Virus record (IMG/VR): IMGVR_UViG_2684622620_000008
DNA from: a virus
Lineage: Duplodnaviria > Heunggongvirae > Uroviricota > Caudoviricetes
Direction: 5' to 3' (one strand)
DNA length: 4,985 bases
The position numbers and the translations under genes are program-made. Positions 1 through 4,985 of the stretch are shown piece by piece. The notes beneath the pieces are model-generated. The model was not told where the DNA came from. It did not search any database and worked only from the letters and a program-made list of their open reading frames with translations. The stretch's first letter is position 1. Every line of letters begins with the position of its first letter.

Positions 1-546
1 CAGTGCAATGCTGTCCAGAATACGCGTGACCTGAACGCCTGAAATCCCAAAGGCAACAGTGACCGTCAGGCATTCCTTTGTGAAATCATCGACGCAGGTA
101 AGACACTTGATCCTGCGACCGGTGGAAAGTGCGTCCATGACGAAATCCATCGACCAGGTCAGATTGGGCGCCGCCGGACGGAGCAGCGGCAGACGTTCTG
201 TTGCCAGCCCTTTACGACGTCTTCTGCGTTTTACGCCCAGGCCACTGAGGTGATAAAGCCGGTACACGCGCTTATGATTAACATGAAGCCCTTCACGGCG
301 CAGCAACTGCCAAATACGACGGTAGCCAAAACGCCTGCGCTCCAGTGCCAGCTCAGTGATGCGCCCTGATAAATGCGCATCAGCAGCCGGACGGTGAGCC
401 TCATAGCGGCAGGTCGACAGGGATAAACCTGTAAGCCTGCAGGCACGACGTTGCGACAGACCGGTCGCATCACACATCAACATCACGGCTTCCCGCTTCT
501 GGTCTGTCGTCAGTACTTTCGCCCAAGAGCCACCTGAAGCGCCTCT
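1..546 (-). CDS. IS3-family transposase OrfB (DDE catalytic domain), 5' part only; expected to be expressed as an OrfAB fusion by -1 frameshift
   Basis: My own translation of the minus strand in the frame ending at 511-513: RGASGGSWAKVLTTDQKREAVMLMCDATGLSQRRACRLTGLSLSTCRYEAHRPAADAHLSGRITELALERRRFGYRRIWQLLRREGLHVNHKRVYRLYHLSGLGVKRRRRRKGLATERLPLLRPAAPNLTWSMDFVMDALSTGRRIKCLTCVDDFTKECLTVTVAFGISGVQVTRILDSIAL, with no stop down to position 1. It is -1 relative to OrfA, overlaps the OrfA 3' end (513-546), and contains the first D-containing motifs of an IS3-type DDE transposase (WSMDF, CVDDFTKE). The 231-473 ORF in the supplied track is a different frame and is not this gene. Confidence 0.85.
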
Positions 547-773
547 TTATCCAGCATGGCTTCGGCAAGCAGCTTCTTGAGTCTGGCGTTCTCTTCCTCA
601 AGCGACTTCAGGCGCTTAACTTCAGGCACCTCCATACCGCCATACTTCTTACGCCAGGTGTAAAACGTGGCATCGGAAATGGCATGCTTGCGGCAGAGTT
701 CACGGGCGGGTACCCCAGCTTCGGCTTCGCGGAGAATACTGATGATCTGTTCGTCGGAAAAACGCTTCTTCAT
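510..773 (-). CDS. IS3-family transposase OrfA (helix-turn-helix DNA-binding and leucine-zipper part)
   Basis: 87-aa ORF MKKRFSDEQIISILREAEAGVPARELCRKHAISDATFYTWRKKYGG...LEEENARLKKLLAEAMLDKEALQVALGRKY. The N-terminal HTH followed by heptad leucines is the conserved OrfA architecture of IS3/IS407-group elements, and it is immediately followed by the -1 OrfB frame. Confidence 0.9.
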   Translation of the reverse strand: MKKRFSDEQIISILREAEAGVPARELCRKHAISDATFYTWRKKYGGMEVPEVKRLKSLEEENARLKKLLAEAMLDKEALQVALGRKY

Positions 774-908: not shown

Positions 909-2087
909 TTAGCTGGCTTTAATTTCTCCATGGGGAACGACAACCCAATCTATATGATTTTGCGTGTAGATCTTGGTTGACTTCGCATCGCTGTGCGCCA
1001 TTCGTCCTTGTGGATCGATACCCTGCTGATCGAATAGATGCGCTGCTAGTGCTCGAATTTCGTGAAAGGTTGGTCTTTCATCCATTGGTAGATTGTCGCA
1101 TAAACCTAGTTTGTCCCGTGTAGCTGAAAACGACCTACTCAAATAGTCCGGTGCAACTTGAGTAGGATGTGAAACCTCTTTGCTGCGTTTAACTTGGCGT
1201 TCTGGGATCCTGTGAACGACAAACGGACTGGCCACATTATCTCGGCTATCGTCAATTATCCGTTTCAACTCTTCACCAATTGGTATTGCAACGTGTGACG
1301 CCTCTTTTTGTTGCACTTTTTGCCTGTGGATGTAAAGCGTCCCATATATGCCATTTTGTGGTTGTTCGAACCAGACACATCCACATATACCGTCTTTAGG
1401 TTCGCGAATTGAGTAACGGATTCGCGATACTTCGAGTCGTGCATGTGTAGTCTGCAATGCTAGGTCCATTGCTGTTCTTAACCATGGTGCAGCGGCCTGC
1501 CTGATAGCTATAAAATGCTCGAGTGACAGGCGCCGTCTTTTCTTCTCATCAGTCCTACGCATTTTTTTTCTGATGGCCGGGTTATCCAGCATTAGTGATT
1601 CATCGACCGCATAAGAGAACAACTTTTTAAGAAAGCTGACCTTTCTGTTCTGCACATTTGCGGATGCGCTGGCATGATATTTGTTGATGTAGGTATTAAC
1701 GTGTTCAAGTTCGATATCGCATGCCGGAACATTTACGAAAAACGCTTTTACGCGTAGAGCGTCATTTTTCCAGTTATCTAAGGTGCTCTGGGAAGGACGT
1801 TCGTCTTCGATAATTCGGGCCATTATGTGATCAACATGTTCAGCAAATGGTTTTGCTTCTCCGATAACACCGCCAGATTCTCTAATAAGATTATCTACTG
1901 ATGGAGATAATTCTGGTCGCATCCTCAGGTTGTACTCTCTGGCGATTGCAATGGCTATTGCCCTATCCTTACCTATATTTTTCTTCTTTCCGGTAATAAG
2001 TGTGAATTTATAAACACCTCGATCTTTATCAAAAATCAGATAATCAGGAAGATGTCTGTATTCTTTTTTACGTGGCCTTGCCGCCAT
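909..2087 (-). CDS. int: Phage tyrosine integrase, lambda Int type (N-terminal arm-binding domain plus C-terminal catalytic domain)
   Basis: The N-terminus MAARPRKKEYRHLPDYLIFDKDRGVYKFTLITGKKKNIGKDRAIAIAIAREYN parallels lambda Int (MGRRRSHERRDLPPNLYIRNNGYYCYRDPRTGKEFGLGRDRRIAITEAIQAN). The C-terminal motifs HEIRALAAHLF and MAHSDAKSTKIYTQ match the lambda HELRSLSARLY and LGHKSDTMASQY catalytic His/Arg/Tyr box. GAGGGG lies 8 nt before the ATG at 2087; the supplied ORF begins two codons earlier at a GTG (2093) that overlaps the xis stop, and either start is possible. Confidence 0.9.
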   Translation of the reverse strand: MAARPRKKEYRHLPDYLIFDKDRGVYKFTLITGKKKNIGKDRAIAIAIAREYNLRMRPELSPSVDNLIRESGGVIGEAKPFAEHVDHIMARIIEDERPSQSTLDNWKNDALRVKAFFVNVPACDIELEHVNTYINKYHASASANVQNRKVSFLKKLFSYAVDESLMLDNPAIRKKMRRTDEKKRRRLSLEHFIAIRQAAAPWLRTAMDLALQTTHARLEVSRIRYSIREPKDGICGCVWFEQPQNGIYGTLYIHRQKVQQKEASHVAIPIGEELKRIIDDSRDNVASPFVVHRIPERQVKRSKEVSHPTQVAPDYLSRSFSATRDKLGLCDNLPMDERPTFHEIRALAAHLFDQQGIDPQGRMAHSDAKSTKIYTQNHIDWVVVPHGEIKAS

Positions 2088-2089
2088 GG

Positions 2090-2299
2090 TCACCCCTCAT
2101 TTATTAACTTGCGAACAGCTTGACTAACCATTGAGTCGACTCCCCATTTTTCTGTTTCGCAGACAAAAACAGAACCGTCCACGATACGCCCCATGAGCAG
2201 ACCGTTCTCGACCCAGCGTTTTATCGTTCGGTTGTCAGGAATTGAGCCATTAGAGAATTCACGGCGTCCCCATTGGCTCGCTTTCATTAGTTTTGCCAT
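2090..2299 (-). CDS. xis: Excisionase (Xis), lambda-like small winged-helix recombination directionality factor
   Basis: A 69-aa product MAKLMKASQWGRREFSNGSIPDNRTIKRWVENGLLMGRIVDGSVFVCETEKWGVDSMVSQAVRKLINEG lies immediately upstream of int, with its stop (2090-2092) overlapping the int start region. It has the lambda Xis pattern (QW..R, T..RWV, DG). The start is taken at the ATG at 2297-2299, which is preceded by GGAGAAACAGCC; the supplied ORF begins 15 codons earlier at an ATG with no obvious RBS. Confidence 0.7.
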   Translation of the reverse strand: MAKLMKASQWGRREFSNGSIPDNRTIKRWVENGLLMGRIVDGSVFVCETEKWGVDSMVSQAVRKLINEG

Positions 2300-2360
2300 G
2301 GCTGTTTCTCCACTTAACCCGCTGCACACGGGCAGTAATATCAAATTTCAGTCCTGATAA

Positions 2361-2576
2361 TTAATTTTGTTCTATGGTTGCTACCTGTTTAATTGGCCTG
2401 ATGCTGTCCAGGAGCAGTCGGCGGCGCGTATTTTCTGCAAAGTGGCGGCGTCCGGTTTCTTTGTGGTAAAACTCGTTTTTTCCGACGACCCACATCCGCT
2501 TTGTCTGGTGCAGTTTTTTTACCTGCGGACCGTTTCGGGTAATAACAATTCCTGTATGAGTTTTTATCACGCTCAT
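2361..2576 (-). CDS. Hypothetical small basic protein (71 aa), function unknown; lambdoid early-accessory (ea-region) gene
   Basis: ORF MSVIKTHTGIVITRNGPQVKKLHQTKRMWVVGKNEFYHKETGRRHFAENTRRRLLLDSIRPIKQVATIEQN. Its ATG (2574-2576) overlaps the TGA of the upstream gene (2573-2575) in an ATGA arrangement, which argues for real, translationally coupled expression. It has the same orientation as the operon. I do not recognise the family. Confidence 0.5.
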   Translation of the reverse strand: MSVIKTHTGIVITRNGPQVKKLHQTKRMWVVGKNEFYHKETGRRHFAENTRRRLLLDSIRPIKQVATIEQN

Positions 2577-2935
2577 TTCTTATTCTCCGGTGCTTTCGGC
2601 ATTACTGCCCAGTGAGTGATATTGACGTTTTCAAGGTCCCCGACCTGAAATGTCCACTGCCATTCTCCGGTTTCTTTTTGCCCCCATGTGTACCAGAGAG
2701 AACGCCAGCCAATCAGCCAGCCTTCTCCGTTAACATCAAATAACAGAACACTTTCATTTGCTGGTGGCAGTTCAGCTGACACTGGTATTACTTTGTTTTC
2801 CAGTGCTGCACATTTAGCTTCAAGCGCATCTAATTTACGCACCAGGTATTCAGCATCCGTTTCATTCACTTTCAGGTCTCGTGGTACACATCTCCCGCGA
2901 AGAAACCCTTCCATTTCGAAAACATTCATGCGCAT
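2573..2935 (-). CDS. yfdS: DUF551-like phage protein, YfdS homolog (N-terminal coiled-coil segment, C-terminal Trp-rich domain)
   Basis: 120-aa ORF. The C-terminus GEGWLIGWRSLWYTWGQKETGEWQWTFQVGDLENVNITHWAVMPKAPE has the Trp-rich ...THW.MP.P signature that I associate with DUF551 proteins of lambdoid prophages. Length and position after yfdR match K-12 yfdS as I recall it. An alternative start is the ATG at 2927-2929, which overlaps the yfdR stop (ATGA). Confidence 0.7.
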   Translation of the reverse strand: MRMNVFEMEGFLRGRCVPRDLKVNETDAEYLVRKLDALEAKCAALENKVIPVSAELPPANESVLLFDVNGEGWLIGWRSLWYTWGQKETGEWQWTFQVGDLENVNITHWAVMPKAPENKK

Positions 2936-3462
2936 TTTCGTAACTCCGATAACTCGTGAAAGCGTTCCATAAACATCCCGTAGGCATGGCCCGGTGGCAT
3001 TGGAATCACGTTGAACATCTCTGTTGCCGGGATGCCTTCCAGTACCGGCCAGAAAGAGCCATCATCAAGCCCGAGATCGCGGCGTTCGGTTGCCAGCATA
3101 ATGAGATCGGCATATTTCACTGGCGTGCTCATAACAGGAGGTAACCCGTATTTCTCACGGATTACGGCGTCTATTTTTTCTTCCATCCGTTTATAGTCAG
3201 GAAGAAGGCGTTTCAGTGGCGCGGGGATGTCCTGGCAATATGCTTCTGTTGCATCATGCATTAACGCTTCAAAAGCAAATTCCTGCTGCACCAGCTGGCT
3301 GCAAAGCACCGCATGTTGGGCGACACTGTAGAAGTGTGAAAGATGACCGGCAAAGCGACAGATATTTGAAAGGGAAACCGCGATATCGTTAATCACGATG
3401 TCGTCTTTATTTATCCTGTCATAATAAAAATGCTTCCCGGAAAAAGTTTTAATAAATGACAT
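2926..3462 (-). CDS. yfdR: HD-domain phosphohydrolase (YfbR-like 5'-deoxynucleotidase family), YfdR homolog
   Basis: 178-aa product from the ATG at 3460-3462 (MSFIKTFSGKHFYYD...), preceded by GGAGAACAAA. HD-domain motifs are visible: H..H in RFAGHLSHFYSVAQHAV, HD in ALMHDATEAY, and downstream acidic residues (KYADLIM, ERRDLGLDD). Length and position match K-12 CPS-53 yfdR as I recall it. The supplied ORF starts 10 codons earlier at an ATG with no RBS. Confidence 0.85.
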   Translation of the reverse strand: MSFIKTFSGKHFYYDRINKDDIVINDIAVSLSNICRFAGHLSHFYSVAQHAVLCSQLVQQEFAFEALMHDATEAYCQDIPAPLKRLLPDYKRMEEKIDAVIREKYGLPPVMSTPVKYADLIMLATERRDLGLDDGSFWPVLEGIPATEMFNVIPMPPGHAYGMFMERFHELSELRKCA

Positions 3463-3555
3463 TTTGTTCTCCGCGTATATGTGCTGCACCACGCTGAATT
3501 CTGGTAAAAGGAAGCCCTCACCATCCGGCGATTATTGAGTCAATTACGTTTCCAT

Positions 3556-3577
3556 AAATGCCCCCGCAGGGGCATTT
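3556..3577. other. GC-rich stem-loop in the yfdQ-yfdR intergenic region (possible weak terminator, attenuator or RNA-processing hairpin)
   Basis: AAATGCCCC-CGCA-GGGGCATTT is a perfect 9-bp stem with a 4-nt loop. It begins 12 nt after the yfdQ stop on the minus strand. The trailing U-run is only 3 and is base-paired in the stem, so it is not a canonical strong intrinsic terminator. Confidence 0.4.
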
Positions 3578-3589
3578 GCAGTAATGAAA

Positions 3590-4414
3590 TCAGGCGGTGA
3601 AAGTACCAATAAAGGTTTCTACTTTGCTGTCCTTGAATTTCTCAACAAGCAGATCACGAAATTCGTTAGCCATTTCTTCCTGCACTGCTTCCAGCTGAAT
3701 AATGCGCAGAACCAGTACAGGACGATCGCCAGTGATAATGCTGAGGCGTAATTTAAATGGACGTTCTTTCAGGCCTTCAAACGGAACGCATTTAAATTCA
3801 AATGCCACTGGCATAATGTCTTTGGTCTTCGCTTCGACAGACTCCATCAGGGAGCGTTTGCCGCTGAAGTCATTATCTTCAAAATCAGCGGTCTGGTTTG
3901 CTTCAATCGTGATTTTACGGACAGCCGCAGCCGCTTTTGTTGCCTGAATAGCGTCACCATTAGCATCAAAGCCCACAAGGTAGTCGGCCCAGTCTTCAAT
4001 CCATTCTGCCAGTGACTTCTGGGAATTACGCTCGCCATTAACAGACAACAGAGCAGAGAACGGTGCTGTCTTTTTCAGTTTGAGAGTGGCGGTGTTATCG
4101 GCGTGACCTGGTTCATCAATAGTACCCAGGTTAAGAACACTGACGGCACGCATATTATCAGCATCGATAAAGCAGCGGGTGCCTTCATCTGCAAGATCTT
4201 TAGAATAACAGGTAAAGTCATCGATGCTGGCAGTGGAAAGCGCACCACGGAAACGGAAGCGATTTAAATTAAATTTTTCCAGATCATGAATGCGGAAATT
4301 CTCAGGCAATGCCACAGCATCGGCACCAATCTTACTGATAATTTCATTAACACCCTGAGCAGAAATAAGAGCATGGATTTGATTAATTGCGGTTGCGTCT
4401 AAGTTCTGAGACAT
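3590..4414 (-). CDS. yfdQ: Prophage protein YfdQ homolog (I recall it as a DUF2303-type protein), function unknown
   Basis: 274-aa [28 protein letters not shown]... with GAGGA 7 nt upstream of the ATG. Length and position immediately upstream of yfdR match the K-12 CPS-53 yfdQ-yfdR arrangement as I recall it. Confidence 0.8.
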
Positions 4415-4479
4415 AATAAGTCCTCACTATATAAAGATATTCAGTGATGAGATAAATAATCAGTTAATTAAGAACGATA

Positions 4480-4842
4480 TTAATGACCTGCTGCGCGAAG
4501 TTTTCCGTCAGGTTCACCGGCAAGAGTCAGTAATTGTCCCTGGTCTTCCTGCAGAATAGTCAGGCGACCACCGCGATTGACATACATCGGCGTTTCGGTG
4601 GTGTCTTCTTCAGAAATTTTCCCGCGGTTAGTCGGGCGAACATATGAGAGTTTGTGTTTGATTTTCACACGGTTCTCATCAAACGGTTCGATTTCCAGAT
4701 TGAGTGAGACCTTCCCTTTGGTTTTCGTGTTCATCACACCGGAAGCGACTTCACTGAGAACTGCGCCGATTTTGGTTTCAAATACGCCGCCGTCCAGCTC
4801 CCCGATAAATGCCTGCACATCAGTACTGCGTTCGCTAGCCAT
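4480..4842 (-). CDS. yfdP: Prophage protein YfdP homolog, function unknown
   Basis: Start taken at the ATG at 4840-4842 (MASERSTDVQAFIGELDGG..., 120 aa), which is preceded by GAGGAGCAGCAAA. The supplied ORF begins 6 codons earlier (4860), at an ATG that overlaps an upstream frame's TGA, so a translationally coupled 126-aa form is an alternative. Confidence 0.7.
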   Translation of the reverse strand: MASERSTDVQAFIGELDGGVFETKIGAVLSEVASGVMNTKTKGKVSLNLEIEPFDENRVKIKHKLSYVRPTNRGKISEEDTTETPMYVNRGGRLTILQEDQGQLLTLAGEPDGKLRAAGH

Positions 4843-4856
4843 TTTGCTGCTCCTCA

Positions 4857-4985
4857 TCATATCGACCCTGCAAGGCCGATTAGTTTCTCCACAAAACAGA
4901 GAAGAACACCTGCGGTGGCAGCCGCCCGGATGGATTGGGTTATGAGCCCGTCGTCCGGTGATGCTCTTCTCTGTTTTGTAAAAAG
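4857..4985 (-). CDS. Possible 3' end of an upstream minus-strand gene running off the window (partial)
   Basis: The minus-strand frame ending at the TGA at 4857-4859 is open to the window edge (about 42 codons, ...ITQSIRAAATAGVLLCFVEKLIGLAGSI*), and its stop overlaps the first ATG of the yfdP ORF (ATGA). The yfdP frame is also open to the window edge, so the coding assignment here is uncertain. Confidence 0.25.
   Translation of the reverse strand, partial: LFTKQRRASPDDGLITQSIRAAATAGVLLCFVEKLIGLAGSI
4891..4979. repeat. Inverted repeat, 17-bp arms with one mismatch, about 55 bp apart, upstream of yfdP
   Basis: 4891-4907 ACAAAACAGAGAAGAAC pairs with the reverse complement of 4963-4979 (GCTCTTCTCTGTTTTGT gives ACAAAACAGAGAAGAGC). 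The interior is GC-rich with further short inverted segments (CACC...GGTG, CCGGA...TCCGG). Confidence 0.5.

Follow-up and report, generated by a model that had tools for sequence, protein, structure and literature searches.

A conserved non-coding three-way-junction RNA domain in the early-left leader of SfV/mEp460/ST64B-type temperate phages

Upstream of yfdP, at the very edge of the viral record IMGVR_UViG_2684622620_000008 (the window, i.e., the whole stretch of 4,985 nucleotides that was analysed), lies an imperfect inverted repeat with a structured interior. Is it the end of a protein gene, a site acting in DNA, or a piece of RNA with a role of its own? The window belongs to a temperate prophage, of which it is the early-left arm; it is read on the minus strand and carries there an IS3-family fragment, an integrase, an excisionase-like ORF, yfdS, yfdR, yfdQ (DUF2303) and yfdP. 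The original prediction had placed two 17-nt arms at 4891-4907 and 4963-4979 and had suggested a structured element embedded in the 3' end of an upstream gene, or else a paired protein-binding site or the remnant of a small element. We find that the repeat forms the helix that closes an RNA domain, a three-way junction that is conserved and does not code for protein. In SfV/mEp460/ST64B-type temperate phages of Enterobacterales this domain is part of the 5' leader that precedes the early-left operon (yfdP-yfdQ-yfdR...xis-int).

Anatomy and genomic setting of the element

The two arms had been located correctly and are complementary at 16 of 17 positions; their sole mismatch (4906/4964) is a G·U wobble in the minus-strand RNA, and the helix in fact runs continuously for 20 bp (P1, Table 1) around 49 enclosed nucleotides. 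A repeat search reports the arms as 25 nt long (4891-4915 and 4955-4979) with 84% complementarity. The further inverted segments noticed inside the repeat correspond to two hairpins that are formed by the 49 enclosed nucleotides. Folded as RNA, the minus strand of 4861-4985 reaches -60.9 kcal/mol, as against -33.3 ± 3.8 kcal/mol for 200 dinucleotide shuffles, none of which folds as well (z = -7.2), in agreement with the structured element that had been proposed, and the identical fold is recovered within a context of 421 nt. On the minus strand this amounts to a three-armed RNA of ~90 nt closed by P1. Arm 1 rises from a base stem through two small internal loops and a GA/UC step to its GGG-CUCAUAA-CCC tip (4938-4950), and arm 2 varies among homologues both in sequence and in length (14 to ~45 nt). 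Both the single-sequence fold and RNAalifold predict pairing of the GGAGAA motif with the U-tract of the upstream terminator, by which P1 would grow to ~25 bp.

Table 1 Features of the leader element and other sites in the window (P, paired region; -, minus strand)
Feature	Position	Strand	Evidence or remark
U-tract end (CUUUUU) of the intrinsic terminator of the upstream sRNA	4980-4985	-	extensions in L001, L080 and L129
P1 5' arm (ACAAAACAGAGAAGAGCAUC)	4960-4979	-	pairs with 4891-4910; RNAalifold predicts the same helix
Junction A	4959	-	between P1 5' arm and arm 1
Arm 1 (P2)	4926-4958	-	CCGGA/UCCGG base stem (5 bp); sequence strongly conserved
Arm 2 (P3), GCGG-CUGCCA-CCGC, variable arm	4912-4925	-	4-bp base covaries
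Junction A	4911	-	between arm 2 and P1 3' arm
P1 3' arm (GGUGUUCUUCUCUGUUUUGU)	4891-4910	-	as for the 5' arm
Conserved GGAGAA motif, directly 3' of P1	4885-4890	-	GGAGA(A/U) in nearly all variants
Hairpin 2 (AUCGGCCU-UGCA-GGGUCGAU)	4861-4880	-	just upstream of the yfdP ribosome-binding site
Shine-Dalgarno GAGGAG	4850-4855	-	sequence
Annotated yfdP start codon	4840-4842	-	RefSeq yfdP in L001 4081-4443 corresponds to window 4480-4842
IS1222 ribosomal frameshift element	426-543	-	full-length match, 156.6 bits

As the window ends inside this U-tract, and its edge cuts off the terminator hairpin itself, three relatives served to extend the sequence: L001 from E. coli, phage mEp460 (L129) and the viral contig L080, the closest of all, which is 99.3% identical to window positions 909-4985. 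Within the E. coli collection nothing matches the window exactly, 95.7% being the best value. None of the three relatives has coding sequence on the 5' side of the hairpin, and the terminator GGCGGUACCAG...CUGGUACCGCUCUUUUU, whose U-tract is window 4980-4985, stands directly upstream. It ends an sRNA module that opens with a long hairpin, continues with a branched domain, which GUUGUGG.../...CCACAAC closes, and with a short single-stranded stretch (seed), and finishes with the intrinsic terminator. Extension past position 4985, which had been recommended to define the upstream gene, thus leads into an sRNA module that PGAP mislabels as a 'frameshifted hypothetical protein', and the supposed 3' end of a protein gene falls away, as the element itself carries no coding signature.

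The element starts 2-3 nt past the terminator of this DicF/sRNA-17/STnc100-type prophage sRNA and lies, on the operon strand, between that terminator and the ribosome-binding site of yfdP, i.e., in a 5' UTR or intergenic position. A T-run is found immediately upstream in 112 of the 114 unique contexts, whereas the downstream gene varies across these contexts and may be yfdP (of two types), yfdR, an RdgC-like gene or others, from which we conclude that the element belongs to the leader and not to yfdP. A counterpart of hairpin 2 (at least 4 bp and a (U/G)GCA loop) is present in 49 of 58 unique downstream contexts, built from 23 stem/loop sequence combinations. Recombination junctions flank hairpin 2: the match to the K-12 prophage CPS-53 ends at 4861, and matches to the O157 and MA11 prophages start at 4874-4880. 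At the opposite end of the window the IS fragment abuts the integrase end of the prophage, and the IS1222 frameshift element sits in its IS3-family orfA (ORF 510-773, minus strand).

Conservation, strand and distribution

Homologues were collected in three ways, i.e., by scanning viral contigs with an arm 1 pattern, by searching one genome per species with a pattern that left the arm 1 loop free, and with a pattern anchored on the P1 3' arm only. The loop-free search gave 22 hits, from Escherichia, Shigella, Citrobacter, Klebsiella, Enterobacter, Kosakonia, Phytobacter, Trabulsiella, Buttiauxella, Mixta, Erwinia and Pseudescherichia. Pairing is retained in all three alignments: 95.1% of cells are paired in A1 (hand-chosen, 20 distinct sequences), 95.5% in A2 (75 distinct sequences) and 94.3% in A3 (79 distinct sequences, anchored outside arm 1), with 11, 11 and 12 pairs, respectively, changed on both sides. 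For P1 alone 93.5-94.9% of cells are paired across homologues, and 5-6 of its 20 pairs show changes on both sides; one or two internal P1 mismatches (C·C, G·G) occur in most variants. No shuffle reaches the observed covariation score in A1, A2 or A3, and in A3 none reaches any of five measures. Sliding the partners by 1-3 columns, as a control, lowers pairing to 37-51%, and RNAalifold recovers the same junction without being given it. In arm 1 the base stem appears as CCGGG/CCCGG, CCAUG/CAUGG, CCAGG/CCUGG and CCGAG/CUCGG, and the tip stem GGG/CCC is replaced by GUG/CAC in variants. The comparison with homologous prophages that had been set beforehand shows arms conserved with compensatory changes: in a set of ~80 different variants, drawn from phages and from genomes of Enterobacterales, pairing holds in 94-96% of the stem cells.

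These alignments also bear on the two readings in which the repeat is not an RNA structure. G·U and U·G pairs outnumber A·C and C·A combinations by 125 to 26 across homologues, which indicates that pairing is kept on the minus strand, i.e., the strand of the operon. A 20-bp inverted repeat could act in DNA, as a paired protein-binding site, a cruciform or a small mobile-element remnant, but complementarity that is maintained on one strand only, a spacer that varies by up to 25 nt and a single copy per prophage in fixed context and orientation make such a site, which had been among the original suggestions, highly improbable.

That the region is ordinary coding sequence, either the 3' end of the PGAP 'hypothetical protein' or an opposite-strand ORF, is harder still to credit. 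The open minus-strand frames and the TGA stop at 4857-4859 are present as had been described, PGAP does annotate a frameshifted CDS, and a 49-aa ORF over the element matches phrog_33599, a small PHROG with no function assigned and the sole protein-family echo. However, PGAP needs the frameshift to obtain any protein, Pfam returned no hit, and substitutions are doubles that preserve base pairs. Element lengths are 105, 106, 107, 108, 124, 126, 127, 129 and 130 nt, with indels that are not multiples of three, and fall into all three classes modulo 3 (39, 32 and 4 variants), so that no reading frame is preserved. The variable columns are spread 20/19/22 over codon positions 1/2/3 of the open frame, i.e., without codon periodicity. 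The element is non-coding. A small ORF after GGAGAA was also considered and rejected, given that there is no start codon at a workable distance and the frame differs between variants.

Of 5426 complete E. coli genomes, 2492 contain near-identical copies of the window variant (five per genome at most), and related variants are known from at least a dozen genera of Enterobacterales, in temperate phages as well as in prophages. Within a prophage there is one copy, in constant place and orientation; the search for the repeat elsewhere, which had also been suggested, found no second (putR-like) copy in ~1 Mb of loci, in which the only other hits were the reverse strand of the same site and weak ones on the upstream sRNA domain. 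BLAST against phage genomes shows a retained hairpin next to an sRNA body that changes: at least three types of body are swapped at this place, and in Salmonella and Klebsiella phages the match to the window is limited to the hairpin. The leader together with a yfdP-type gene was also met on contigs assigned to Chryseobacterium sp. 18061 (L136) and to a Geobacteraceae MAG (L141), assignments that likely reflect contamination or mis-binning.

The adjoining sRNA module and a putative RNase III site

The sRNA module upstream has known relatives. In mEp460 it is sRNA-17, a 193-nt transcript mapped in E. coli K1 by 5'/3' RACE and Northern blot (PMC7719688), and the published RACE 3' end is the U-tract that matches window 4980-4985 (PMC7719688). 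In the E. coli relative, positions 4579-4801 of L001 match the Rfam family STnc100 (RF02076) with 46.5 bits (gathering score 47) up to the U-tract, and the module terminator weakly resembles DicF. The element is linked to STnc100 (RF02076), PasD, sRNA-17 and DicF in that it adjoins them on the same strand and in the same transcription unit and travels with their terminator. It differs from STnc100 and sRNA-17 in that the Rfam model and the mapped sRNA-17 end stop at the U-tract and the hairpin is outside both; for the same reason, i.e., an RF02076 match with nothing over the hairpin, the element was rejected as a form of STnc100 itself. A boxA-like reading of CUCUUUUUACAA was discarded too, as this stretch is the 3' stem and U-tract of the terminator and is gone in those few variants without a terminator. 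In phages LLS and Eeyore, weak RprA-like Rfam matches (~41 bits, gathering score 70; L007 1370-1506 and L008 1408-1506) cover the 3' part of the sRNA domain and the terminator.

Could the element be a terminator in its own right? A back-up terminator or attenuator that silences the early-left operon in lysogens would fit a long, stable hairpin placed right after a terminator, with a 3' arm that ends in GUUUUGU in the window variant. Yet this U-rich stretch is base-paired and reads GUUGUGU in most variants, and the consensus scan places no terminator at the element. Moreover, when sRNA-17 is deleted together with its terminator, yfdP reads go up ~95-fold with the hairpin still in place, so the hairpin alone does not stop transcription, although read-through from a resistance cassette could be what lies behind this rise. 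We consider a back-up terminator very unlikely. The same features, i.e., an A-U-rich stem base, paired U's with no free U-tract after the stem, and a consensus scan without a site here, dispose of the element as a canonical intrinsic terminator, a point on which the original prediction was right. The consensus scan likewise shows no promoter inside the element.

The closest parallel is the dicBF region of the Qin prophage (E. coli K-12), also a prophage early operon, in which an sRNA ends in a Rho-independent terminator with a near-identical hairpin (UGGCGGUAUCAGUUU versus UGGCGGUACCAGUUU). In both Qin and the window a helix of ~20 bp, 3-8 nt past the U-tract, closes a branched domain before the first downstream ORF; in Qin the stem has 21 bp, begins 8 nt after the DicF terminator and closes the domain ahead of dicB. 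RNase III cleavage is documented for Qin, whereas for the window element it is proposed from position and analogy. Termination yields a DicF of 53 nt, and RNase III processing of the full-length transcript one of 72 nt (PMC5069750, as summarized there from Faubladier 1990), and the ~19 nt by which the latter is longer would put the cut ~12 nt into the Qin stem. RNase III also makes the 5' end of a 190-nt DicF (bioRxiv 10.1101/2023.04.14.536235), a cut that, judged from the lengths, we infer to lie in the 3' arm of the long hairpin that directly precedes the sRNA domain. In general, 5' UTRs and the intergenic parts of transcripts are enriched for RNase III sites (PMC6212723).

The parallel has its bounds, as the Qin helix closes an STnc100-like domain and not a three-way junction, and the element model gives this helix only 12 bits; the argument for RNase III thus rests on position and analogy, not on homology. 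The Qin dicF-dicB region (L153 1933-2142) is a sub-threshold STnc100-like domain (34.4 bits, gathering score 47), and phage F1055 and L080 each have, as their corresponding domain, a homologue of the sRNA body upstream of Qin dicF. Within Qin the element model scores highest, though still weakly (12.8 bits), on the upstream hairpin. Such a second long hairpin upstream of the sRNA domain was observed in K-12 Qin (L153 1664-1762), and similar ones in mEp460 (L129 1288-1360), LLS (L007 1248-1324) and Eeyore (L008 1245-1322), with a stem that resembles P1 (GAGRGCAU...GUGCUCUC).

At 20 bp, or 25 bp with the U-tract·GGAGAA pairing, P1 is as long as the stem of an RNase III hairpin (about two helical turns, ~20 bp or more). 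Given that P1 holds the position of the Qin stem, has the right length and would be present only in read-through RNA, we consider that it most likely marks an RNase III cut site in read-through transcripts, a proposal to which we give about an even chance. Transcripts that stop at the terminator would never contain the domain, whereas those that read through would fold it, with the U-tract paired to GGAGAA at the base of the helix, and the resulting helix of 20-25 bp would be a substrate for the RNase III of the host. Cleavage would then part the sRNA from the mRNA that follows and define the 5' end of this mRNA, possibly with hairpin 2 left as a 5' stabiliser, and in this way both early-left expression and the form of the sRNA would be tuned. 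The internal mismatches of P1 (C·C, G·G) could alter or block such cleavage. Searches of the literature on ST64B sRNAs and of RNase III data returned nothing direct for the element locus.

Long hairpins in transcripts of the PL operon are also known from lambda, i.e., the sib retroregulator and the N-leader hairpin, which form or matter only in read-through and change the fate of the mRNA via RNase III. They have no sequence relationship with the element, sib is at the 3' end of int whereas the element is in a 5' leader, and neither has a sequence-conserved side arm, unlike the element.

A near-invariant side arm and its possible partners

A part of the domain that RNase III does not explain is arm 1, which is nearly nucleotide-for-nucleotide the same in more than 12 genera of Enterobacterales, also when the search is anchored elsewhere. 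RNase III needs little sequence specificity and requires no conserved side arm. Together with the conserved stem, this near-invariance points to an additional or different partner. The main rival to RNase III processing is accordingly that the junction is an autonomous RNA domain in which a specific factor from the phage or the host, e.g., a translational regulator of the first early-left gene or an elongation/antitermination factor, is bound by arm 1 and perhaps by hairpin 2, and the long stem only closes the domain. Besides arm 1, this would account for the (U/G)GCA loop that hairpin 2 keeps on 23 different stem/loop combinations and for arm 2 variants that are a UUGCAG-loop hairpin like hairpin 2, and it would suit SfV/mEp460/ST64B-type phages, in which the interval from PL to the first early-left gene holds no N gene. 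On the other side, no candidate binding protein is common to all loci, there is no second copy in the right operon or elsewhere in the loci, and an element located after the terminator cannot rescue RNA polymerase at that terminator. We hold this reading to be possible, with perhaps one chance in a few.

As to the arm 2 variants themselves, the arm is sometimes GCGG-UUGCAG-CCGC, the same as hairpin 2, and in other cases its exact reverse complement, GCGG-CUGCAA-CCGC (among the Phytobacter loci L132, L143 and L147 and the loci L099, L060 and L133); the UGCA core of the loop is self-complementary. Kissing or pseudoknot pairings were looked for by inspection (arm 1 loop with the downstream start codon region, arm 2 with the hairpin 2 loop, UCCA with UGGA, and the sRNA seed with the 5' arm), and none is conserved across variants.

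A more specific form of partner is suggested by a resemblance of arm 1 to the anticodon arm of the initiator tRNA. Window 4937-4950 is a 14-nt exact match to E. coli metZ (CGGGCUCAUAACCC) that takes in the CUCAUAA loop and its three G-C pairs; in 3000 shuffles the longest match is 12 and none attains 14, CUCAUAA is the loop in 93 of 114 unique contexts, and YUCAU is in the loop of all 22 hits of the search that left the loop free. If arm 1 were indeed a mimic that engages a factor recognising tRNA-fMet, it might dock to the 30S P site/IF3 or to MetRS and so control the first early-left gene, or it might serve as a decoy against initiator-tRNA-specific anticodon nucleases of the VapC type, e.g., VapC/MvpT of Shigella and Salmonella. 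Against this, the resemblance was noticed post hoc and among ~45 tRNA species, loop positions 37-38 vary (AA, UA, UC), and ARAGORN finds no tRNA-like gene in six loci, which also eliminates a tRNA gene as such. With the anchor outside arm 1, there are loops with C in place of U33 (CCCAUAA, CCCAUCA) or without CAU (CUCCUAA, CCCACCA, CCCUAA), so U33 and CAU appear to be preferred but not obligatory. We regard tRNA mimicry as unlikely.

Two known classes of phage leader RNA were compared with the element and set aside. The put RNAs of HK022 and HK639 are, like the element, structured cis-acting RNAs in the early leaders of lambdoid phages without N, but put consists of two tandem stem-loops before terminators, with putL and putR in HK022, whereas the element is a three-way junction after a terminator and is found once per locus; nothing similar is present in HK639, in which putL is annotated, and the element model has no hit there. 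The C4 RNA of P1 and the CI RNA of P4 are processed phage RNAs in which, similarly, a basal stem carries two hairpin arms, but the element has no Rfam C4 match at E <= 10, and inspection revealed no conserved complementarity between its loops and a target in the leader.

The element is thus a real, conserved and very common structured RNA that has no match in Rfam 15, in which nothing covers the hairpin in the window, L001, six other phage loci, the K-12 Qin region or L080, and of which we found no description in the literature searched. It is probably best filed among the RNase III-type processing structures of prophage early leaders, with one conserved arm that such a role leaves unexplained. 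It stands at the junction of a much-studied group of prophage sRNAs (DicF, STnc100, PasD, sRNA-17) and the recombination/excision operon, and through this location it bears on the maturation of the sRNAs and on the control of leaky early-left expression in lysogens.

Current RefSeq records leave the element blank or fold it into a 'frameshifted hypothetical protein', and a covariance model would remove this recurrent pseudogene call and give a clean marker for the leader module. The call, 'hypothetical protein, frameshifted' in RefSeq/PGAP, spans sRNA and hairpin in L001 (4458-4768), L002 (2969-3288) and L003 (2975-3294), and phage records place hypothetical ORFs on either strand over the same stretch (mEp460 gp36, F1055_0036). 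Between the early-left genes and the sRNA module, L001 also holds an 81-aa ORF on the plus strand (4881-5126) that is not annotated in RefSeq, and in L002 a different plus-strand gene occupies its place.
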